A stretch of 41,549 bases of DNA, from positions 1-41,549 of IMG/VR virus record IMGVR_UViG_3300045988_081107; one strand, 5' to 3'. The notes below the pieces were generated by a model. The model saw nothing but the letters and a program-made list of their open reading frames with translations. It was not told where the DNA came from and searched no databases. The stretch comes from a virus. Made by a program: the position numbers and the translations under genes. Of the stretch, positions 2,133-41,549 are shown piece by piece (the first letter of the stretch is position 1; each line of letters begins with the position of its first letter).

Positions 2133-2181
2133 AAAAAATCCGCATGAACACTGGATTTTCCAGCATTCATGCGGATTTTTG
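2133..2181 (+). terminator. Bidirectional intrinsic terminator closing the cassette
   Basis: AAAAAATCCGCATGAA (2133-2148) pairs with TTCATGCGGATTTTT (2166-2180). An inner CTGG/CCAG hairpin is present. An A-run lies upstream and a T-run downstream. Confidence 0.8.
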
Positions 2182-2262: not shown

Positions 2263-3417
2263 CTATTTTTCACGGTTCGAAACGTAGTCGTCCAAGCGGG
2301 CGATATATTTTTTATCTTCTTCGTCGCGGAACTGCTGATATACCCGGCGGGTGGTCATTATATCCGCGTGTCCCATCAACTTTTGCGCCACCTTATCCGG
2401 CACGCCTGCATAGAAGAGGTTTGACGCATACAGGTGCCGGAACTGGTGGGCGGTAACGGTGGCTTTGTAGACTTTTCTTTGCGTTATGTGTTCCGGGGTG
2501 TTTCCGGTTTGAGGTATCTTTGCCAGGTGTGTGTACCACTCTGCCAGACCGATGCTCCGGCAATACGAAATCCAGCGGTTGTTATACCCGGACTGAGTAA
2601 GCGGGGCTTCGCTGCCTGACATCACATAATCTGTCGGCTTGCATCTTTTTTGGTGCTCGAGCAGTGCCGGCTTGAACGGCGTCAAGATCGGCACATCGCG
2701 ATAGCCGTTTTTGGTTTTAGGTGTTTCGAGGTATGGCTGGTTTTTGTGCCACGGCATGGCGCGGCTCACATGGATCACGCCGGCGTCAAAGTCCACATCC
2801 TTCCACTGCAGACCGTTCGCCTCGCCGATACGCAGCCCGGTATACTCGAAAAGCTGCGCCCAAAAACCGCAGCCTTCCGGGTGCGCGTGAATCACGCGCT
2901 GTTGTTCGGGCGTTGGCTCTTCTCTGCTGCCCCGCTTCATCCCGGCGGGTGGCGATGCCAGCAGAACAGGATCGCCAGCGCCGTGATAGTTTGCGCACCA
3001 GAACTTGAACACACAGCTTAACACGCTTTTGGCGTTGGTGATGGTGTGCAAAGCCTTGCCATTGGTTTTCATCCGCTCCATATAGCTGCATACCGCCTGC
3101 GTGTCAATATCCTGCATGGGGGTATCTCCAAAATAGCTTATAAAGTTCGCCAGATACCTTTTGTATGCCGTTATCGTGCTGCGCTTTATGGGCGTCCCGT
3201 CCCCTGTGATGTAGTTTTCGTATGCTTGTGCCATCTCCCGGAAGGTGGCACCGCCGTTATTTTTGCTTTCTTCCAGTGTTGCCTGCCGGTAGGCTTCTTC
3301 ATACTTTGCGGTCGCTTCGGCAACCGTGGCGCCCAGGAAGTGCTTATATTTTCCGTCCGGCATTTTGCGCTTGATCTCATACCGGCCGTCAGCGCGTTTC
3401 GTTCTTTTTCTTGGCAT
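2263..3417 (-). CDS. int: Tyrosine recombinase (phage integrase)
   Basis: 384 aa. The C-terminal catalytic region has HQFRHLYASNL...LMGHADIMTTRRVY (R-H-R-Y type signature). It is adjacent to the tRNA-like attP fragment. Confidence 0.93.
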   Translation of the reverse strand: MPRKRTKRADGRYEIKRKMPDGKYKHFLGATVAEATAKYEEAYRQATLEESKNNGGATFREMAQAYENYITGDGTPIKRSTITAYKRYLANFISYFGDTPMQDIDTQAVCSYMERMKTNGKALHTITNAKSVLSCVFKFWCANYHGAGDPVLLASPPAGMKRGSREEPTPEQQRVIHAHPEGCGFWAQLFEYTGLRIGEANGLQWKDVDFDAGVIHVSRAMPWHKNQPYLETPKTKNGYRDVPILTPFKPALLEHQKRCKPTDYVMSGSEAPLTQSGYNNRWISYCRSIGLAEWYTHLAKIPQTGNTPEHITQRKVYKATVTAHQFRHLYASNLFYAGVPDKVAQKLMGHADIMTTRRVYQQFRDEEDKKYIARLDDYVSNREK

Positions 3418-4649: not shown

Positions 4650-6077
4650 TTAGTTACGCAGTGCTTTTTCACGCACTTCCGGTGTAACAGCTTTCAGCAA
4701 ATCATAGAGGTCAATAATATCGGTGATTGCCTGCCGGTCCTGCCCCGTCCATGTGTAATCGAACTTGTTGTAATCCACGCCCTCAAAACGCATGATAACG
4801 GTATTGGCGCTCAAAAGGTTCCGCAGCCATTCAACTTCACTGTCTTCCATTTCAAAGACAGCTCCTGCAAACCACTTGCCAAGCTTTTTGTCATATCCGT
4901 AAGCGGAGTTGTCATAACCGCAAGTGTAAGTGTACTTATAATCTCCACCGCGCAGAATGATGTCATCGATATCCAGCTTGGAAGAGCCCATGTAAGTAAA
5001 ATCTTCCCAGAAAACAATCGTGTTCCCCTTGTCCCAGATATAAAGGTTGGGGCCAATGCCACACGTCTTGCGCTTGTCGAGGTTGTCATAATGCGGGGTT
5101 GTAATCGCCCAGCGGTCTTCTACTGCATCGTAGTTGACATTGCACTTTGCAAGTGCATCCTGAATACCAAGAATCTGCTGTGCTTCTGCTAGCACACCAA
5201 AATTGGTGACAGCAGCTTTTCCCGCATCATCCAATTGGTTGTAGGCATCCAAAGCGGCCACGATTGCCGCGCGTCTGCTGCGCGTGACAGTGCCGATCTG
5301 GCTGATCAGTGCTTCTACCTGCTCCGGGGTTACAGCATCATTCTGAGCATCAATAAAATCGTTTTCTGTTGGTGCGTTTTCCGACATGACAGCTTTTGCG
5401 GCCGTTACACGCTCTTCAACAGTAGCGCTTTGCAGCAGGTTATACAGGTTGATGATATCTGTCATGCCTTGTCGGCTTTCGCTATCGATGATCGTGGTCT
5501 GCGTTCTTTGCGTTCCGTTGACCTTTGCGCCATTGAAACGCAGATATGCAGTGTCGGCACTCAGAATGCGGCTCAGGCAGTCCATATCCTCGTCGTTCCC
5601 GCCAAAGGATACCTCTTCATAAAAAATCCGGTCATCGGGATAGTACTGGCGCGAAACTTTTTTAAACTTGTAGTTCGTCTGACTGGTATAATTATTGTAT
5701 TCGCCAATCAGAACATCTACATCGTTCCAGTAAAAATAGCCTTCGGTGTCCTGGGATGTAAAACTCATACCAAACCGGACTGTATCACCATATAAATACG
5801 CATACGGCATCAGGTAACTTCTATTGTTGTCTGTTTCGTAATCTTCATAAGCGGATTCAAAAAGCCAGATGCCATCCTCGTATGATACATCAATGTTAGC
5901 CAGTGCGTCTTTGATTGCCTGCACCTTGTCGGCATTCACGTCATTCTGCTGCGCAAGCACCGCAAAGGGAACGTCCCCGGCGGGGCTGGCGGCCAGCGCG
6001 GGCAATGCAGTACCTGCCATCAGCGCAGCCGCAATTGCGCCCGCCACAATAACTTTGCATTTTTCAGCAATTTTCAT
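4650..6077 (-). CDS. Secreted protein with two tandem homologous domains (lysogeny-module accessory gene)
   Basis: 475 aa. The signal peptide is MKIAEKCKVIVAGAIAAALMAGTALPALA|AS, with no lipobox Cys. Residues about 50-222 and about 300-466 are paralogous: IKDALANIDVSYEDG / IQDALAKCNVNYDAVEDR, LSADTAYLRFNG / LSANTVIMRFEG, RQGMTDIINLYNLL / RQAITDIIDLYDLL. Confidence 0.85.
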   Translation of the reverse strand: MKIAEKCKVIVAGAIAAALMAGTALPALAASPAGDVPFAVLAQQNDVNADKVQAIKDALANIDVSYEDGIWLFESAYEDYETDNNRSYLMPYAYLYGDTVRFGMSFTSQDTEGYFYWNDVDVLIGEYNNYTSQTNYKFKKVSRQYYPDDRIFYEEVSFGGNDEDMDCLSRILSADTAYLRFNGAKVNGTQRTQTTIIDSESRQGMTDIINLYNLLQSATVEERVTAAKAVMSENAPTENDFIDAQNDAVTPEQVEALISQIGTVTRSRRAAIVAALDAYNQLDDAGKAAVTNFGVLAEAQQILGIQDALAKCNVNYDAVEDRWAITTPHYDNLDKRKTCGIGPNLYIWDKGNTIVFWEDFTYMGSSKLDIDDIILRGGDYKYTYTCGYDNSAYGYDKKLGKWFAGAVFEMEDSEVEWLRNLLSANTVIMRFEGVDYNKFDYTWTGQDRQAITDIIDLYDLLKAVTPEVREKALRN

Positions 6078-19173: not shown

Positions 19174-19319
19174 GCTGCCATAGCTTAGTGGGCTAGAGCG
19201 CTTTGCATCTGATACATGCAAGGTAACATTGGCGATACACACCACCCATGGCTCTGCGTTTAGCCAGCGCAGAAGTTAATGCGGTGTGGGCGTTGGTTCA
19301 AATCCAACTGGCAGCACCA
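19174..19319 (+). ncRNA. Aberrant 146-nt tRNA-like gene (GAT anticodon loop on an 8-bp stem, plus a 68-nt structured insertion in the variable region)
   Basis: The acceptor GCTGCCA/TGGCAGC pairs perfectly and is followed by A and CCA. The D arm is GCTT-AGTGGGCTA-GAGC and the T arm is GTTGG-TTCAAAT-CCAAC. The hairpin CTTTGCAT-CTGATAC-ATGCAAGG sits at 19201-19223. The insertion at 19224-19291 contains CACACC/GGTGTG and TCTGCG/CGCAGA helices. Confidence 0.55.
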
Positions 19320-34790: not shown

Positions 34791-35036
34791 ATGACTATTG
34801 TGAAAAAAGATGGTTACTTATACCAGTGCACCGTGTGCCCGGATGGGCGCATAAAAAACGGAGGTTGGACGCTGAAAAGCGTCATCCCGAAAACGCTGCC
34901 GCCGGATCAGCTGCTTTTTGAGGATTTCCCGGCCAACAGCAACGGTGGCAATGACTATATCTGGGACGGGCAGAATTTGATTTTTGACCCGCTGCCGGAG
35001 GAAAGCGAGGAAGCAAATGCAGAAAATCAGGATTGA
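34791..35036 (+). CDS. Hypothetical small tail-module protein
   Basis: AAGGAG abuts ATG 34791, so GTG 34800 is the better-spaced start. About 78-81 aa. Confidence 0.55.
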   Translation: MTIVKKDGYLYQCTVCPDGRIKNGGWTLKSVIPKTLPPDQLLFEDFPANSNGGNDYIWDGQNLIFDPLPEESEEANAENQD

Positions 35037-37827
35037 TTTTGATAATCCCGGTCTGCCGAAGCACATCAGCGCGGTGGAGAACGACAGCCAGAGCCGTTTT
35101 TTTCAGGCAACGCTTTACGAAAACGGCAAGGCGTATACTGCGCCTGAAGGAGCTGCTTACAGCATCATGTACCGCGGCTTCGGCCCCCAAAATCAGGGCT
35201 GGTACGATACCATCAACGACGGTGCAGGCAAGCGTGCGGCGTGTGCCGTGTCCGGCAACGTGGTCACCTGCGAGATCGCACGTCAGGCACTGCAGGTGCC
35301 GGGTCATGTGAGCATCGTGCTCTGCGTGACGACCGGAAAAGGCTATATGATCAAGAGCTGGCCTATCGAGTGCGACTGCAAAAACGACCGCTACGACAGC
35401 ACTGCGGAGATCCAGAGCTTTTTTTATATCACGCAGGTCTCTAATGCGGACTGGAATCGGATAATTCAGGCGTTGGAAGAGCTTAAAAACACGATCGACC
35501 CCACCCTCTCCCTCTCCGGAAAGGCTGCGGATGCGGCGAAGGTGGGAGAGGCGGTCAATGCGGAGGCAACCAGAGCGAAGGCAGCCGAGGAGGAGAACGC
35601 AAAGGGGATTGGACAGCTAAAGGAAGATTTAGTTGACTTATCTCATGTGAGATTGCTTAACGGATTTGACAAAGATAATACTGAAATAAATAAATATTAC
35701 AATTCACAAGGTGTGTTATCAGCATCGAACGGATGGACTGCATCCTTATCTTATGCAAGAGTTGAACCAAGCAAATCATACCATGCTAAATCAATATACA
35801 ACTATGATTTGCAAGTCATAGCTGTATGGTATGATGGAGAGCGCAATTTTATAAAGCAAGAATCAAACACATCTTTCATATCTCCAGACAATGCGAAGTA
35901 CGCAAGAATTTGTTGCAACACAAATTATGTCGATGTTCTTGTGTTTGGAAGTTTTGATTCTATTTCTGAGTATTTAGAATTTGGCAATGAAACTGTATTA
36001 AATGATTCGGTTGCAACAGACAGAATTGATGAAGCCATTTTATCTTCACAAAACGAAGCTGATTATGCTTCTAATATCACTGATTTCTATTCTTCCGAAT
36101 TTATGAATATCATATTGAGAAATGGATTTGATAAGACCTCGGTTTTAAAAAATAAATTCCTCTATATAGATGGAAGCATAAAAGATTCAAGTGGTTGGGG
36201 TGTGAACGAAAGCTATATTCTAATCAAACCATCTGTAACATATAAAGCAATGTCATATTCTTTAGACGTTAAACGAAATGTAAAAGTAGCATGGTACGAC
36301 AAGTATAAGGGCTTTATCAGAGTAGATGAAAATGTTGATTTTATAGCACCTAACAATGCTAAATTTGCAAGGTTATGTTGTACATTGAATATCAGTGATA
36401 CATTTGTGTTTACAGAAAAAGAAAATTCATCGGGAGAATATCTGGAGTATGGTTATGAAAAAAGCATAGATGAATCTGTTAAAATTCCAATTAAACCAAT
36501 TAAATCTGAAGTAACATCTGTTAATGGAAAAAAAGGAGATGTTGTACTAACTTCAGAAGATATAGGAATTTCTTCCGATGTAGAAAAAGCTGTTACAGAT
36601 TATCTTAAAAAAAATAATATTATCTCTCCTAAATTAACTATTTCAAAAGTAGTTGCAAGAGGAGGAATTAAAAATTCATATTCTACACCTACATCTGATT
36701 ATGTTACATTCAAGGATATATATCCTGTTTTCGATGTTGGGAGTAATACCACTGGTGCTGTATATGCACTTGCAGAACATCTTGTAGGTGCAACAACACA
36801 GGCTGTATACAAAAGCATAGATGGCGGTGAACATTGGACAAAGATGGGTGATTTACAAATCGACCAAGCCAATGGAATTTGGTACAATTCTATATTTGTT
36901 GAACCGTTCCAAGAAACAATTTACACAATCAAAGTTACAAACGGATATAATGACCCACATCACAATTATATTGAAAGTTTCAACTCTAGCCTTACAAAAA
37001 TCGGCTCTATGGATATTGGTGTTGGTAGAATGTTATCTGGACTTCATAGTATGGATGCTTGTATCAGCAAGGACTACTCCAAACGAGTTGTTATATTTGG
37101 AGAATATGCTTTAGAAGATGCCAAAACTGTTAGAATGTGGAAAACAGTTGATAGAGGTGCAACATGGACAAAAGTTATGGAAAAACGAGCAAATAATGGT
37201 GTTGTATATAGTGGAGAAATAAGACATTTCCATGCTGTATGTTGTGACCCATATACATTTGATTGGTGGGCTTGTAGTGGTGATGGTGATAATCAGTGTA
37301 AAATTTGGAGAAGTCAAGACGATGGGGACACTTGGATGGAAATGTTTGCAAATGGTCAGCAGACAAGAACCTTACAATTTGTATTTGAGAAAGATTGTAT
37401 CTACTATGCAATGGACTCTACTACTGCATCGACCAGAAAGTTTACCAAGCTTTTCAAGATAAACAGGGAAGATATGTCCGTTGTAGAGGTTGCCGACATC
37501 AAAAACAATTTTGCTGTCTACAACATTACAAGGACTTATACACCTAATGGCTTGATTATTTGGGCTTGTAATGAAAACGTTGCAAGTGTTGACGCTGACT
37601 CCGTATGCATCCAGTTTTATGATTACGCAACTGGGACTATTAAGGATATTTACAATTATCCGTTCAATGGGATAAAAAATACTTACAGAGGTTTCCAAGC
37701 AGCATCAAGACGTCAAGACATGGAAAGTGGCAATATTTTCTTCATGCCTACACTTAACATTGGGCAGTCAGCATATGGTACGATGAACACTTGCTCACGA
37801 TATTTTAAGGCTAAAATTACAACATGA
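35017..37827 (+). CDS. Receptor-binding / tail fibre protein: BppU-like N-terminus, two tandem ~115-aa modules, C-terminal Asp-box (BNR) beta-propeller-like domain
   Basis: 936 aa; GAGGAAG RBS. The N-terminus IDFDNPGLPKHISAVENDSQSRFFQATLYENG is BppU-like. The paralogous modules span aa 212-325 and 366-481. The Asp-boxes are SIDGGEHW, TVDRGATW and SQDDGDTW. Confidence 0.85.
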   Translation: MQKIRIDFDNPGLPKHISAVENDSQSRFFQATLYENGKAYTAPEGAAYSIMYRGFGPQNQGWYDTINDGAGKRAACAVSGNVVTCEIARQALQVPGHVSIVLCVTTGKGYMIKSWPIECDCKNDRYDSTAEIQSFFYITQVSNADWNRIIQALEELKNTIDPTLSLSGKAADAAKVGEAVNAEATRAKAAEEENAKGIGQLKEDLVDLSHVRLLNGFDKDNTEINKYYNSQGVLSASNGWTASLSYARVEPSKSYHAKSIYNYDLQVIAVWYDGERNFIKQESNTSFISPDNAKYARICCNTNYVDVLVFGSFDSISEYLEFGNETVLNDSVATDRIDEAILSSQNEADYASNITDFYSSEFMNIILRNGFDKTSVLKNKFLYIDGSIKDSSGWGVNESYILIKPSVTYKAMSYSLDVKRNVKVAWYDKYKGFIRVDENVDFIAPNNAKFARLCCTLNISDTFVFTEKENSSGEYLEYGYEKSIDESVKIPIKPIKSEVTSVNGKKGDVVLTSEDIGISSDVEKAVTDYLKKNNIISPKLTISKVVARGGIKNSYSTPTSDYVTFKDIYPVFDVGSNTTGAVYALAEHLVGATTQAVYKSIDGGEHWTKMGDLQIDQANGIWYNSIFVEPFQETIYTIKVTNGYNDPHHNYIESFNSSLTKIGSMDIGVGRMLSGLHSMDACISKDYSKRVVIFGEYALEDAKTVRMWKTVDRGATWTKVMEKRANNGVVYSGEIRHFHAVCCDPYTFDWWACSGDGDNQCKIWRSQDDGDTWMEMFANGQQTRTLQFVFEKDCIYYAMDSTTASTRKFTKLFKINREDMSVVEVADIKNNFAVYNITRTYTPNGLIIWACNENVASVDADSVCIQFYDYATGTIKDIYNYPFNGIKNTYRGFQAASRRQDMESGNIFFMPTLNIGQSAYGTMNTCSRYFKAKITT

Positions 37828-37889: not shown

Positions 37890-38567
37890 ATGCTCCCTAT
37901 CATGGACGTTTCCCGCTGGCAGGGTAACATTGACTGGAACAAGGTCAAGGCAAGCGGCCTTGTCTCCGGCGTGATGCTGCGGGCGCTGGGCAACAGCGCA
38001 GAGGACAAGCCCAGCAAGCCGTACATCGACCCCACCTTTGAGCGCAATTACCGCGAGTGCCAGCGGCTGGGCATTCCCTGCGGCGTGTACTACTACTGTA
38101 AGGCAACCGGTACGGAAGAGGCTGACGCAGAGCTTGCCCTGCTGCGCAAGGTGCTGACCGGCAAGACAGTGCAGCTGCCCGTTGCGGTGGACATCGAGGA
38201 TACCTATGTGCAAGCGCCGCTCGACAAGCAGACCCTGACGGACCTTGCCGCCTATGCGCTTGCTACGGTGGAGCGCTGGGGCTTTTACGCCATGCTGTAC
38301 ACCGGGCTGTACTTTGGCCGTGATAACCTGTACATGGGCGGCGCGGCACTCAAGCCATACGATGTATGGCTTGCAGCCTACCGCAGCAAAAAGCCTGCGC
38401 CGGAATGGAGTTTCGGGCTGTGGCAGTACACCAGCAAGGGCAAGATTCCCGGCGTTGTGGACGCAATACCGGGCAAGATTTCCGGTGTTGACTTGTCTGT
38501 GCCCTACAAGGACTATGCTAAAATTATCGCAAAGAAGGGTCTGACCCGTCTTCGGGAGGGCAAATGA
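37890..38567 (+). CDS. Endolysin, GH25 muramidase
   Basis: MDVSRWQGNIDWNKVKASG...GVYYY...DIED matches the GH25 catalytic pattern; 225 aa. Confidence 0.9.
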   Translation: MLPIMDVSRWQGNIDWNKVKASGLVSGVMLRALGNSAEDKPSKPYIDPTFERNYRECQRLGIPCGVYYYCKATGTEEADAELALLRKVLTGKTVQLPVAVDIEDTYVQAPLDKQTLTDLAAYALATVERWGFYAMLYTGLYFGRDNLYMGGAALKPYDVWLAAYRSKKPAPEWSFGLWQYTSKGKIPGVVDAIPGKISGVDLSVPYKDYAKIIAKKGLTRLREGK

Positions 38568-39600: not shown

Positions 39601-39879
39601 ATGGCAAGCATTACATACGAGCATCCCGGTGGCTTTACCGAGATGTACGCCGCACAAGAGCAATTTCGTGGCATCACGAAAATGGTCTGCGCACGTTTTC
39701 GTGGCCTCACGAAAACATACCATCTCGGCAATGTCAACAAACTGGTGACATTTTGTCACCGTTTCGCCAGCATTGGCAAAATGGTGCGCAACGCCGGACA
39801 GCTGCCGCAGCCCTTCTGGCTCGGTGGCGCCTGTGGCTGCGGCTCGTGTGGTGCTGCCAGCTGCGCTGCAAGGGCTTGA
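39601..39879 (+). CDS. Possible 92-aa protein with FRG(I/L)TK repeats and a Gly/Cys-rich C-terminus; coding status uncertain
   Basis: AAGGAG lies 8 nt upstream, and codon third positions look genome-typical. However, four DNA palindromes occupy the ORF. The C-terminus is LGGACGCGSCGAASCAARA. Confidence 0.4.
   Translation: MASITYEHPGGFTEMYAAQEQFRGITKMVCARFRGLTKTYHLGNVNKLVTFCHRFASIGKMVRNAGQLPQPFWLGGACGCGSCGAASCAARA
39664..39781. repeat. Array of four palindromes (candidate protein-binding sites or RNA hairpins)
   Basis: TTTCGTG-GCAT-CACGAAA is at 39664-39681 and TTTCGTG-GCCT-CACGAAA at 39697-39714, 33 bp centre to centre. GGTGAC-ATTTT-GTCACC is at 39744-39760 and TTTCGCCA-GCAT-TGGCAAAA at 39762-39781. 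Confidence 0.85.
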
Positions 39880-39889
39880 CCGACAGCAG

Positions 39890-40057
39890 ATGACCGCCGC
39901 CATCAAAAGCGCACCGCTTGGGAGGGTTGACCGTAAGATAGCTTTACTGCGGTACGTTGAGCGGCTCCCGCTGCCGGACATTGCAGCACAGACACATTAT
40001 AGCCGGACGGCGATAGGCTACCGGCTGAAAGGCATTGAAAAAATGCTGGATGTGTGA
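39890..40057 (+). CDS. Small sigma-70 region 4-like HTH protein
   Basis: DRKIALLRYVERLPLPDIAAQTHYSRTAIGYRLKGIEKML resembles ECF sigma region 4. The start is uncertain (ATG 39890; the frame is open from 39773). Confidence 0.5.
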   Translation: MTAAIKSAPLGRVDRKIALLRYVERLPLPDIAAQTHYSRTAIGYRLKGIEKMLDV

Positions 40058-40112
40058 TATACTAATCGTGAGCAACGAATTAGTTTTGAGCTTCTGCTCA
40101 GGCAATTCAAAA

Positions 40113-40148
40113 ACGGCAGGCTTTCGGGTCTGCCGCTTTTCTTTTTTT
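40113..40148 (+). terminator. Intrinsic terminator ending the late/lysis transcription unit
   Basis: CGGCAGGC-TTTC-GGGTCTGCCG followed by CTTTTCTTTTTTT. Confidence 0.8.
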
Positions 40149-40156
40149 ACGATTTG

Positions 40157-40390
40157 TGGTAAAATAACATCAACAAATCCTCCCGGCCTCTCGAAGAAGC
40201 ACAAGAGGGTGGATATCTGAACCCGCTAAGCCTCTCAACGATGCGTATCATGGCGGGCCTTTTAATATGATACAGTCTCCCGCCCGCCTACTTACAGTGC
40301 GTACCATGCGGGAGACGCCTTTAGGCTCGAAAGGCTACGGCCTTTGTAGAGAGCGGCATTGCCTGTGGGCGGTTCCGCTCTTGATTTTTT
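40157..40390 (+). ncRNA. Candidate structured small RNA (function unknown)
   Basis: An extended -10 TGGTAAAAT lies at 40157-65. There is no ORF with an RBS. Helices are GGCGGGC/GCCCGCC (40252-58/40282-88) and GTCTCCCGC/GCGGGAGAC (40275-83/40308-16). The terminator is AGAGCGG/CCGCTCT followed by TGATTTTTT (40350-40390). Confidence 0.35.
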
Positions 40391-40420
40391 GTCTTATTTG
40401 CACTAGTTTTGTCGAAACCC

Positions 40421-40454
40421 TTGTCTTGCAAGTCAAAACGTGATATTTTATTTT
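40421..40454 (+). promoter_or_regulatory. Candidate sigma70-type promoter of the five-gene cassette
   Basis: TTGCAA (40426-31), 17 nt, TATTTT (40449-54). Alternatively TTGTCT (40421-26), 17 nt, TATTTT (40444-49). It lies about 150 nt upstream of the first cassette gene. Confidence 0.45.
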
Positions 40455-40601
40455 TGCTTCCAATGTGAAGCCCTTAACAGTTAAGCGCTCATGCGGATTT
40501 TTCCGTGTGGGTGCTTTTCTTTTTTTTGTCCTTCGTTTGACGTTCGTTGTCCTTCGCTTTTTGTTGATGCGGTACACTGGGAGCATCAGGAGGGATGCAT
40601 T

Positions 40602-41120
40602 ATGAGTTATTATCCAACACCCGGAGCGCCTTACGTTCCGCAGCAGCCCGTCAATCCTTACGGCGGCATGGGAACGGTAGGGCTTGCCACTTCCCTGCCC
40701 AACACACAGATGCAACAGGCACAACCGCAACGTCCGCAGTCGATGAACGGGCAGCAGTCTATTCAGCAGTCGGCACAGGATGGCGGATGGCTGCTTGGCA
40801 GACCTGTGTCCAGCAGAGAGGAATTCTTGGCAATACCGTCTGACCTGTACGGCAGACCGACCTACTGCCCGGACTTGCGCAGTGGCGTGATCTACTGCAA
40901 GCGGCTTAACCCGGACACTTGTGAATCCTATGTACAGGAGTTCTACAGCCCGGAAGCATGGCGGCAGATGCAGGCGCAACAGGCACAGCAGACCGCTGCA
41001 CCGACACAGCAGTATGTGCCTATTGAGCAGTACAACGCTCTTGTGCACCGACTGGATGAACTGGAAAAGTGGCAGAAGAGCTTTTCTAAGCCCGCTGCCG
41101 CAGCGAAGAAAGGAGAATAA
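40602..41120 (+). CDS. Hypothetical protein with a Pro/Gln-rich disordered N-terminus (cassette gene 1)
   Basis: AGGAGGG RBS 8 nt upstream of the internal ATG at 40602; 172 aa. It contains YYPTPGAPYVPQQPVNPYGG...QQAQPQRPQ, then a Cys-containing globular part and a C-terminal coiled coil. Confidence 0.75.
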   Translation: MSYYPTPGAPYVPQQPVNPYGGMGTVGLATSLPNTQMQQAQPQRPQSMNGQQSIQQSAQDGGWLLGRPVSSREEFLAIPSDLYGRPTYCPDLRSGVIYCKRLNPDTCESYVQEFYSPEAWRQMQAQQAQQTAAPTQQYVPIEQYNALVHRLDELEKWQKSFSKPAAAAKKGE

Positions 41121-41123
41121 GCG

Positions 41124-41375
41124 ATGCCCTCTCCGTTTGACATGATTACTCACAGCCCTATCATGCAGCTTGCAAATCTGGCTCGCGCTGGGCAGAACCC
41201 GATGGGGCTTATCCAGCAGTTGGGTGGGCAGAATGCTCCTATCATGCAGGGCTTGAACCTGATTCAGGGTAAGAACGAAGCACAGCTCAGGACGATGGCA
41301 CAGAACCTCGCCAAAGAGCGTGGCATCGACTTGAACCAGCTGGCAAGCGTCCTGAATTTGACGCTGCCCCGGTAA
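41124..41375 (+). CDS. Hypothetical small helical Gln/Leu/Asn-rich protein (cassette gene 2)
   Basis: AAAGGAG RBS; 83 aa. It starts 3 nt after the upstream stop. Confidence 0.7.
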   Translation: MPSPFDMITHSPIMQLANLARAGQNPMGLIQQLGGQNAPIMQGLNLIQGKNEAQLRTMAQNLAKERGIDLNQLASVLNLTLPR

Positions 41376-41437
41376 CGCATCCCTCTAAGCGAAACGCTTC
41401 TCAGTTTTGCGGACTTGACAAAAACCGCTTTTGTTTG

Positions 41438-41549
41438 GCTTCGCCCATCGCATACGGCGGTGGGATGGCATAACGCAAAACTGAAAGGAGTTTTGTTATG
41501 GACGATTTTGCAACTGGCTATCTGGCTGGGCAGGACGGCGGCAATAACA
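41438..41549. repeat. Terminal direct repeat, right copy (identical to 1-112)
   Basis: Exact 112-nt match to the window start. It includes the RBS and first 17 codons of the CDS that starts at 61. Confidence 0.95.

Follow-up and report, generated by a model that had tools for sequence, protein, structure and literature searches.

The window analyzed here, a stretch of 41,549 nucleotides of viral DNA, contains five same-strand genes (g1–g5) that form a real, strongly conserved accessory module carried by many gut phages between terminators. In our best explanation, to which we assign a probability of roughly 0.4, this terminator-insulated and translationally gated module would build a membrane-anchored, fibre-like complex, rather than being a lysogeny-specific conversion island. 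No characterised homologue was found for any of the five proteins; they are cysteine-rich, of low complexity or coiled-coil, and show no recognisable catalytic domain.

Architecture and conservation of the module

The window is a circular contig whose ends overlap by 112 bp (1–112 = 41438–41549; true length, 41437), and because this overlap closes the contig, the cassette runs on across the circular junction, as the first-pass annotation had proposed. The five open reading frames (ORFs) described there were all found, with AGGAGG-type ribosome-binding sites, and its view of a discrete, terminator-insulated block, with lysis genes on one side and a plausible attP/integrase region on the other, is supported. 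The features of the region are as follows.

39773–40057, + strand: last ORF ahead of the cassette; its C-terminal part resembles a sigma-70 region-4/HTH regulator, with a weak match to phrog_36 (transcription regulator)
40114–40148, + strand: terminator T1, a 9-pair hairpin with a T-run, closing the lysis/late unit
40151–40323, + strand: conserved non-coding block U1, with an extended −10-like TGGTAAAAT just ahead (fold z = −2.6)
40350–40390, + strand: terminator T2, a hairpin with a T-run at 40365–40390
40426–40454, + strand: weak promoter-like TTGCAA-17-TATTTT (8 of 12 consensus positions by direct reading)
40483–40527, + strand: terminator/attenuator T3, a 15-pair hairpin (40483–40516) followed by a T-run, between the promoter-like site and g1
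40528–40601, + strand: conserved g1 leader with repeated GTCCTTCG anti-SD-like motifs (fold z = −4.2)
40602–41120, + strand: g1, 172 aa; P/Q-rich N-terminus, conserved core, and C-terminal coiled coil; member of the core module
41124–41375, + strand: g2, 83 aa; small helical protein, a frequent module member
41392–41493, + strand: g2–g3 spacer with a 20-nt inverted repeat (arms 41392–41411 and 41474–41493, 85% complementary)
61–933, + strand: g3, 290 aa; N-terminus of Gly-rich, hydrophobic (~17 aa), and Gly-rich segments, then a long helical region
969–1005, + strand: terminator-like hairpin between g3 and g4 (11-pair stem and T-run)
1019–1390, + strand: g4, 123 aa; cysteine-rich eight-strand β-sandwich (AlphaFold2 pLDDT, 87.7)
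1404–2045, + strand: g5, 213 aa; charged coiled coil, P/Y-rich linker, and DUF7841 helical domain
2051–2264, no strand assigned: probable attP region, with GCAGACTTWTTGCAGACT repeats at 2051–2068 and 2247–2264 and a tRNA 3′-end-like core near 2190–2215
2134–2180, no strand assigned: bidirectional terminator, a 20-pair hairpin whose arms are the two downstream copies of a 14-mer
2263–3417, − strand: integrase (domain and PHROG matches)

All five genes are under purifying selection among close relatives (pN/pS, 0.05–0.26; 0.07 for g1 and 0.05 for g2), and the five ORFs are therefore real genes. The close relatives comprise 80 IMG/VR loci that were retrieved via g3 and are hence all g3-selected; in these the genes are collinear and 84–99% identical, with protein identities of 76–99% for g1–g4 and 67–97% for g5, while the flanks are mosaic and the upstream endolysin is 44–94% identical and lies at a variable distance. 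The order g1–(g2)–g3–X–Y–(Z) is kept across 80 diverse loci in genomes of Clostridia and of some Bacilli, with g1 adjoining g3 in most of them and g2 detected in about half, and IMG/VR holds 584 confirmed matches, with protein clusters of thousands of member sequences. The core g1–g2–g3 recurs in Clostridia phages at differing genome positions: past the lysis genes and ahead of the integrase; in L138, in the interval from Phage_min_cap2 to the scaffold protein; in L099, downstream of tail genes; and in L003 and XP41-N3, beside early genes. An integrase is encoded within the three downstream ORFs of 12 of the 150 neighbours scanned, a like arrangement is found in L005 at a prophage end adjoining a ribosomal-protein operon, and Sigma70_r4 proteins lie directly upstream of the module in five other loci. 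The variable flanks and positions support the idea that the block acts as a portable module. Its composition is not distinct from that of the genome, with a modest gap in GC content (56.1% vs 52.0%) and GC3 within the range of the other genes. Cultured carriers of the core module are Butyrivibrio phage Ceridwen and Clostridium perfringens phage XP41-N3.

Two deletion variants were found. In L172 most of g3 is missing, together with the whole of g4 and the N-terminal half of g5, and L173 is without g1–g4; the DUF7841 domain of g5 is kept in frame in both. These natural variants, which come from metagenome contigs, indicate that the block is dispensable.

Both hairpin and T-run terminators said to end the late/lysis unit were confirmed (40114–40148 and 40365–40390), the latter moving as a separate mosaic block (40329–40388) among relatives. 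The T3 hairpin, absent from the first-pass annotation, contains in its 5′ arm and loop the upstream 14-mer (40489–40502), and at its position other relatives bear at least five different hairpins. The bidirectional terminator thought to close the block was likewise found (2134–2180); most relatives have a different hairpin, ACCCCTGTG...CACAGGGGT, 6 nt past the g5 stop, which forms the conserved right edge of the module in them. Terminators vary in sequence but flank the module on both sides in relatives too. The adjoining repeats, the tRNA-like core, and the neighbouring integrase together make 2051–2264 a probable attP.

A sigma70-like promoter had been proposed to drive the cassette. The TTGCAA-17-TATTTT sequence exists, but it is weak, it is not among the reports of a promoter scan, and T3 lies between it and g1; moreover, its −35 element is not kept in L001, and the block containing it is missing from many relatives. 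We found no conserved promoter for the cassette, and recognised none in the conserved g1 leader. This leader and the preceding T-run (40521–40601) make up the conserved left edge of the module. Its SD sequence AGGAGGG is predicted to pair with UCCUUC, and this pairing is kept in the consensus structure in 29 of 29 variants, the pairs barely varying and never on both sides. The 3′ arm of the inverted repeat in the g2–g3 spacer overlaps the g3 ribosome-binding site, so that SD occlusion is predicted for g3 as well. The spacer carries an inserted 53-aa one-TM ORF in L001 and a ~200 bp insertion at the same point in many relatives, and a 56-aa two-TM ORF, of which 17 related loci carry a homologue, is inserted immediately 3′ of U1 in L001. 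The non-coding region upstream matched no Rfam family above threshold, its only matches being sub-threshold ones to abiF (24.2 bits vs a gathering score of 37) and ctRNA.

The 14-mer TCATGCGGATTTTT occurs at 40489–40502 (+), 2167–2180 (+), and 2134–2147 (−). The three copies noted previously are all present and lie beyond chance (0.01 matches expected from shuffles; three copies reached in 0 of 100 shuffles), but the inverted copy had been placed one base off, at 2135–2148. The repeat had also been taken to bracket the block as its boundary, and the exact copies on both sides in the window, far above chance expectation, would fit a mobile element or site-specific insertion delimited by a 14-bp direct repeat. 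This explanation is already largely refuted, and we regard it as highly improbable: among the 80 relatives, the downstream copy is missing in most, copies on both sides are found only in L079 and L084, and two plus-strand copies in none. The copies belong to terminator hairpins, with a different structural role in each, and a second exact 14-mer, GCTTTTCTTTTTTT, recurs in the T1 and T3 tails (40135 and 40513), indicating that recurring terminator sequence is a general property of this region. The conserved edges of the module are located elsewhere, similarity to the window mostly stopping within the 3′ end of g5 (1966/2006); Pfam, PHROG, and NCBIfam scans detected no recombinase or transposase domain in g1–g5, and the natural deletions employed other microhomologies. 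The 14-base repeat is thus terminator sequence only and does not mark where a mobile element ends. Excision by the integrase at this repeat was dropped as a candidate because the repeat is not conserved.

Protein products and the proposed complex

Scans of all five proteins against Pfam, NCBIfam, and PADLOC gave DUF7841 in g5 as the sole match, and PDB searches with single sequences and profiles found nothing; the statement that the products fit no family accordingly holds for most of them, g1–g4 matching nothing in these three collections. PHROG profiles matched g1 (phrog_21718, 1e-7) and g3 (phrog_16490, E = 3.9e-40). No Pfam or PDB relative was found for g1. Literature searches on DUF7841 and phrog_16490 returned no papers.

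The signature protein g3 has more than 7498 homologues. It contains cysteine motifs, CCC within the helical region and CCGCC at the C-terminus, and its hallmarks are kept as far as the crAss-like phages and also in homologues from archaeal viruses, minus the C-terminal Cys tail. The family phrog_16490, noted on the archaeal virus homologues as well, is present in crAss-like, Bacteroides, and methanogen viruses, with no homologue found in the cultured crAss001 record. The hydrophobic segment is conserved, a strict hydropathy threshold being passed by only 37 of 91 homologues, and charge bias yields no clear topology. One homologue (P0063) has collagen repeats. Those of crAss-like and Bacteroides phages bear the annotations 'spike' or 'viral fiber', which are probably driven by coiled-coil similarity.

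The model of g4, which has 245 cluster representatives, showed no significant Foldseek match in the PDB (best, a baseplate/tail-fibre chain; E = 0.15). In the BFVD its matches were the C-terminal domains of many fibre proteins, both tail-fibre and collagen-like (E, 6e-5 to 1e-2; probability, 1.0; TMq, ~0.5), together with a crAss-like protein that fuses a g4-like fold with DUF7841. The earlier statement that no product looks virion-like needs qualifying in this respect, since the g4 model resembles tail-fibre tip domains; g4 has no Pfam or PHROG tail-fibre match, and its gene is separated from the tail/lysis genes by three terminators. In g5, residues 109–206 correspond to Pfam PF25223 (DUF7841; 89.6 bits vs a gathering cut-off of 25.2), and the model is confident only for residues 110–213, with no PDB match in Foldseek. 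Across relatives, slot X holds g4 or phrog_20016, and slot Y holds DUF7841 or phrog_28802; in hhalign comparisons phrog_20016 showed no homology to g4, nor phrog_28802 to g5, and the two slots therefore hold unrelated families.

No signal peptide or lipobox-like hydrophobic N-terminus was detected in g1, g2, g4, or g5, so that any complex must assemble on the cytoplasmic face. The proteins are very rich in cysteine, which is not what one would expect of a complex at this face. A link to the membrane is suggested by the conserved hydrophobic segment of g3, and by the small TM ORFs added within and just upstream of the module in relatives.

We propose that the block is a moron-type cassette of tailed phages, with the core g1–g2–g3 followed by two exchangeable slots, occupied here by g4 and g5. 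In this proposal, g3 would enter the cytoplasmic membrane via its Gly-flanked hydrophobic N-terminus and make a cysteine-stapled coiled-coil stalk, which the fibre-tip-like β-sandwich of g4 and the DUF7841 protein g5 would join, with g1 and g2 as putative assembly partners. Expression may be controlled by the terminator immediately upstream and by leaders occluding the ribosome-binding sites of g1 and g3, and the putative attenuator past g3 would be expected to yield more g3 than g4 or g5. The complex would most likely act at the cell envelope, during infection or in the lysogen, its likeliest roles being to exclude other phages or to modulate the end of infection; an essential part of the virion is unlikely.

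Known systems and alternative explanations

The cassette resembles the morons of lambdoid phages (in the HK97/lambda sense) in being a discrete and dispensable addition to a conserved backbone, in having intrinsic terminators at its ends, and in occupying different module junctions from phage to phage (in the window, between the lysis genes and attP). Unlike them, it comprises five to six genes instead of one or two, exceeds its flanks in conservation, occurs in every close relative sampled (all of them g3-retrieved), shows no convincing promoter of its own, is barely distinct in composition, and has its g3 family also in crAss-like phages. Membrane superinfection-exclusion proteins (T4 Imm, HK97 gp15, and lactococcal Sie2009) are likewise accessory and dispensable phage proteins with a single hydrophobic anchor, and their genes often lie close to the prophage end or in the early region; these proteins are, however, single and small, whereas the cassette is multi-protein with a 250–300 aa coiled-coil protein, and the likeness lies in the hydrophobic anchor of g3, with no homology. 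The i-spanin lambda Rz shares with g3 an N-terminal membrane anchor followed by a cysteine-containing coiled coil, and a location near lysis genes. A spanin was nevertheless rejected, as the cassette has no lipoprotein partner and is parted from the lysis genes by terminators, and the hosts are mostly monoderm Clostridia, with family members also in archaeal viruses. Spore-coat, exosporium, or Ena-like proteins, suggested by composition, were rejected too, with no support from Pfam, PDB, or fold and with the family also in Bacteroides and archaeal viruses.

The module might instead encode an accessory virion fibre or decoration, in which g3 would supply a trimeric coiled-coil shaft stapled by cystines, with g4 (or phrog_20016) as the knob at its far end and g1, g2, and g5 serving as adaptors or chaperones, all of them being joined to the particles in the cytoplasm. 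Such a structure would recall the T7 gp17-type or collagen-like tail fibres, which combine a coiled-coil or collagen shaft with a C-terminal β-sandwich knob: g3 is long, helical, cysteine-containing, and shaft-like, the g4 model aligns with the C-terminal tip domains of many fibre proteins in the BFVD, and P0063 carries collagen repeats. The fibre annotations of g3 homologues, the lack of a signal peptide in any member, a cysteine content that suits extracellular stability, and the neighbourhood of structural genes (in L138 the module stands between minor capsid protein 2 and the scaffold protein, and in L099, vir215, and vir335 it adjoins tail genes) point the same way. The fibre-like fold of g4 and the location in or beside structural genes of some phages fit a virion role and our preferred reading equally well. 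Yet shaft and knob are separate small proteins in the cassette, without membership of the fibre sequence families, a conserved TM-like segment opens g3, and further small TM ORFs occur in relatives. In the window, the genes are not part of the tail module and three terminators part them from the late operon, and in one phage the module stands among early recombination genes, as does a g3 homologue in a Bacteroides phage. Furthermore, deletion variants persist, the fibre annotations probably reflect coiled-coil similarity, and the block is >90% identical across phages with widely differing tail-end and lysis genes, so that the docking site on the virion would have to be generic. We consider this explanation possible, though on the doubtful side.

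The first-pass annotation had interpreted the genes as lysogenic-conversion (moron) genes, expressed from their own promoter in the prophage and conferring a new trait on the lysogen. The integrated block would indeed sit at the prophage end opposite int, beside attR, the L005 arrangement and the downstream integrases of 12 of 150 neighbours agree with this, and terminators stand on both sides. The interpretation is nonetheless unlikely, because the core module occurs in phages isolated lytically (from plaques or sewage), within a head-gene operon in one phage, and beside early recombination genes in another, the g3 family extends to crAss-like phages, the candidate promoter is weak and non-conserved with a terminator behind it, and the GC content departs only modestly from that of the genome. 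Prophage defence genes are commonly located between lysis genes and attP, and an anti-phage defence or abortive-infection system at such a hotspot would accord with a multi-gene block including a predicted membrane protein and with the weak abiF RNA match close by. This is a still less probable explanation: no component matched the PADLOC-DB defence models (sole hit, g2 at E = 0.056), domain scans of the window copy detected no effector domain, whether nuclease, NTPase, protease, or another, the g3 family occurs in crAss-like phages, and conservation is reversed relative to a hotspot, the cargo being constant while the flanks vary.

Implications for gut phages

The membrane-anchored, fibre-like complex thus remains our preferred reading of a module that is very common and under strong purifying selection, without any characterised component. 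Exchange at terminator T-runs and short microhomologies shapes the region, which corrects the idea of a repeat-bounded element. Since the core module is present in two cultured phages (Ceridwen and XP41-N3), its function is directly testable. The signature protein g3 crosses host phylum and even domain boundaries within the gut virome. We tentatively suggest, as a somewhat speculative extension, that the g3 family and its exchangeable partners may constitute an undescribed protein system, a cysteine-stapled coiled-coil fibre with a hydrophobic anchor, common to viruses of Bacillota, Bacteroidota (including crAss-like phages), and gut methanogenic archaea. If so, its function would be independent of the type of host envelope and tied to anaerobic gut life.

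Five genes across the circular junction

The ends of the window overlap by 112 bp, making it a circular phage contig, and the block of five same-strand genes (g1–g5) therefore spans 40421 through the junction to ~2181, as the first-pass annotation had it; the endolysin and integrase sides that it placed around the block were likewise both found.

37890–38567, GH25 endolysin, then two small hydrophobic proteins
39773–40057, small ORF with a C-terminal sigma-70 region-4-like HTH, ending just before terminator T1
40602–41120, g1
41124–41375, g2
61–933, g3
1019–1390, g4
1404–2045, g5
2263–3417 (−), tyrosine integrase, with an HTH repressor beyond

AGGAGG-type ribosome-binding sites precede all five genes, and pN/pS over 80 related IMG/VR loci is 0.07, 0.05, 0.11, 0.18, and 0.26 for g1–g5, respectively; the genes are real. 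Homologues number >7498 for g3, 245 cluster representatives for g4, 153 for g5, and 67 for g1, none bearing an informative name.

Repeats of GCAGACTTWTTGCAGACT (2051–2068 and 2247–2264), probably the integrase arm sites, lie on either side of the final terminator and of a sequence resembling a tRNA 3′ end (~2190–2215, reverse complement GGGTTCAAGTCCC), probably an attP core located in a tRNA gene. There are two inverted repeats of 13 nt: one, perfect, pairs 31–43, immediately before the ribosome-binding site of g3, with 2177–2189 at the end of the final terminator, and the other (92% complementary) pairs 40590–40602 in the g1 start region with 41373–41385 just after the g2 stop. Elsewhere, a 947-aa gene upstream of the endolysin (34984–37827), whose product may be a tail fibre or receptor-binding protein, has a GC content of 39% (GC3 0.36) versus 52% for the genome, which suggests recent foreign origin. 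Beside tRNA-Met and tRNA-Trp, a third tRNA-like gene (19174–19316; Rfam, 44 bits) carries an 84-nt insert in the anticodon region and received no ARAGORN call.

Terminators and edges of the module

The annotated terminators were recovered at 40114–40148 (T1), 40365–40390 (T2), and 2134–2180. A further one, T3, had escaped notice: a 15-pair hairpin with a T-run at 40483–40527, between g1 and the promoter proposed at 40426–40454. The promoter site itself exists, but it agrees with the consensus at only 8 of 12 positions, in the related locus L001 the −35 element is not preserved, the block that bears it is missing from many relatives, and T3 intervenes. The 14-mer TCATGCGGATTTTT, said to bracket the block, is indeed present in three copies (40489 (+), 2167 (+), and 2134 (−)), far beyond the 0.01 matches expected from shuffles; the upstream copy supplies the T3 hairpin with its 5′ arm and loop. 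A second exact 14-mer, GCTTTTCTTTTTTT, is common to the tails of T1 and T3 (40135–40148 and 40513–40526).

Among the 80 IMG/VR relatives, g1–g5 are collinear and 84–99% identical, and the upstream endolysin is just 44–94% identical and lies at a variable distance. The conserved left edge is a T-run plus leader (~40521–40601), preceded in different relatives by at least five different terminator hairpins, and in locus L019 the g1 leader is joined straight onto T1; the left side (40050–40525) is made up of small blocks in a patchwork. At the DNA level, resemblance to the window mostly stops at 1966 or 2006, within the 3′ end of g5, and extends farther only in loci with the window-type integrase. 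Most relatives have another hairpin (ACCCCTGTG...CACAGGGGT) 6 bases past the g5 stop, after which the flanks diverge. Iteron-like repeats (TTTAAGCAAG / TTTAACCAAG units) are inserted between T3 and the g1 leader, just upstream of the leader, in six loci (L012, L016, L042, L046, L052, and L069).

Two natural deletion variants were found, both formed at short homologies other than the 14-mer. L172 has its junction at the 13-nt repeat GGCGGCGCAGACA, which connects window positions 277 and 1701, and has lost g4 entirely, along with the greater part of g3 and the N-terminal half of g5; in L173, 40010 is joined to 1711 and g1–g4 are gone. The 14-mer occurs upstream in ~45 of the 80 loci, downstream in 5 (solely on the minus strand), and on both sides in only 2. 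Given this distribution, the second 14-mer shared by T1 and T3, and the deletions at other homologies, the repeat is terminator sequence, not a mobility boundary, and a repeat-bounded mobile element is unlikely. Terminator T-runs look like recombination points, and the 14-mer may have arisen by exchange from one terminator to another.

Predicted proteins and regulation

The N-terminus of g3 has Gly-rich, ~17-residue hydrophobic, and Gly-rich segments, followed by a long helical region, where CCC is invariant and ASQxAQ and PxPxPAY are further motifs, and the protein ends in a Cys/Gly tail; members of the family have on average 10.7 cysteines per 239 residues. Among the five products g3 alone has a hydrophobic segment, and signal peptides are absent from all of them. 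g1 starts with a P/Q/Y-rich stretch and also has a conserved core and a coiled coil, and g2 is a small helical protein. For g4, an eight-strand beta-sandwich was predicted confidently (pLDDT 87.7), without a significant match in the PDB; in BFVD its hits were first to its own family, then to C-terminal domains of many fibre proteins, both tail-fibre and collagen-like, and also to a 294-aa crAss-like 'DUF7841 domain-containing protein', which links g4 to g5. In g5, only the five-helix DUF7841 domain, with many invariant polar residues, was modelled confidently. Since this domain is kept in frame behind an upstream reading frame in both independent deletions (L172, 6001–6546; L173, 112–594) and follows unrelated N-termini in other proteins, it may be selected on its own.

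Small membrane ORFs accompany the module in relatives. Between g2 and g3, L001 has a sixth gene (5451–5612), a 53-aa one-TM ORF starting with MDDF as g3 does, and many relatives carry a ~200-bp insertion at this point that is absent from the window. Upstream of g1 in L001, inserted at window 40323/40329, is a 56-aa two-TM ORF with homologues in 17 related loci. This small membrane-protein gene, of which the window seems to retain only the leader and terminator, may form a toxin- or holin-like unit. An extended −10-like TGGTAAAAT precedes a conserved non-coding block (window 40151–40390, L001 4284–4493), which T2 closes.

The g1 Shine–Dalgarno sequence is predicted to pair with UCCUUC of the conserved leader (z = −4.2), a 20-nt inverted repeat overlies the g3 ribosome-binding site, and downstream of g3 is a hairpin with a T-run. 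The sigma-like ORF at 39773–40057 may regulate the cassette, and five other loci have sigma-type genes ahead of the module. We infer that these elements regulate the module.

Distribution and site of action

A g3 profile search of reference genomes gave 110 loci, mainly in Oscillospiraceae, Acutalibacteraceae, and Lachnospiraceae, and also in Anaerotruncus, Enterocloster, Lachnospira, and some Bacilli MAGs. By local HMM searches, the order is g1-(g2)-g3-X-Y-(Z) on one strand throughout, with g1 and g3 almost always there. Slot X is filled by the g4 family in 16 loci and by phrog_20016 in 31, slot Y by DUF7841 in 11 and by phrog_28802 in 33, and slot Z by a small HExxH protein; hhalign detected no homology between the alternatives within slot X or Y. 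The module lies between lysis genes and integrase in the window, L005, and L086, between Phage_min_cap2 and a scaffold protein in L138, after collagen-like tail genes in L099, after sigma-factor genes in some loci, and among early genes in L003. In two cultured phages, it follows the endolysin and a terminator (Butyrivibrio phage Ceridwen) or lies between antirepressor and Gam/Erf (Clostridium perfringens phage XP41-N3). Members of the g3 family are further found in many crAss-like phages and in Bacteroides phage C3_41T2LP (HMM E = 1e-24 and 2e-28) and, more remotely, in Methanomassiliicoccales viruses, whose annotators also gave phrog_16490.

The architecture, portability, and dispensability of the module are evident, and with no recognisable enzymes among its proteins they point to a tightly gated accessory module that would build a fibre-like complex anchored through g3. 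We tentatively favour the cell membrane as its site of action (probability ~0.4), because the hydrophobic anchor is conserved in g3, extra TM ORFs occur in and near the module of relatives, the block is insulated from the late operon, the module moves among phages differing in virion and lysis genes, and deletion variants persist. A serious, less probable rival is that it is instead an accessory fibre of the virion. The proposal of a lysogenic-conversion cassette is weakened by the core module in phages isolated lytically, by g3 in crAss-like phages, and by the copy within a head operon in one phage; a defence system is unlikely.

As a moron-type cassette, the block belongs to a known kind of element; a literature search found no papers mentioning DUF7841 or phrog_16490. 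The module comprises several genes with uncharacterised products, and its signature protein occurs in gut viruses of both bacteria and archaea.
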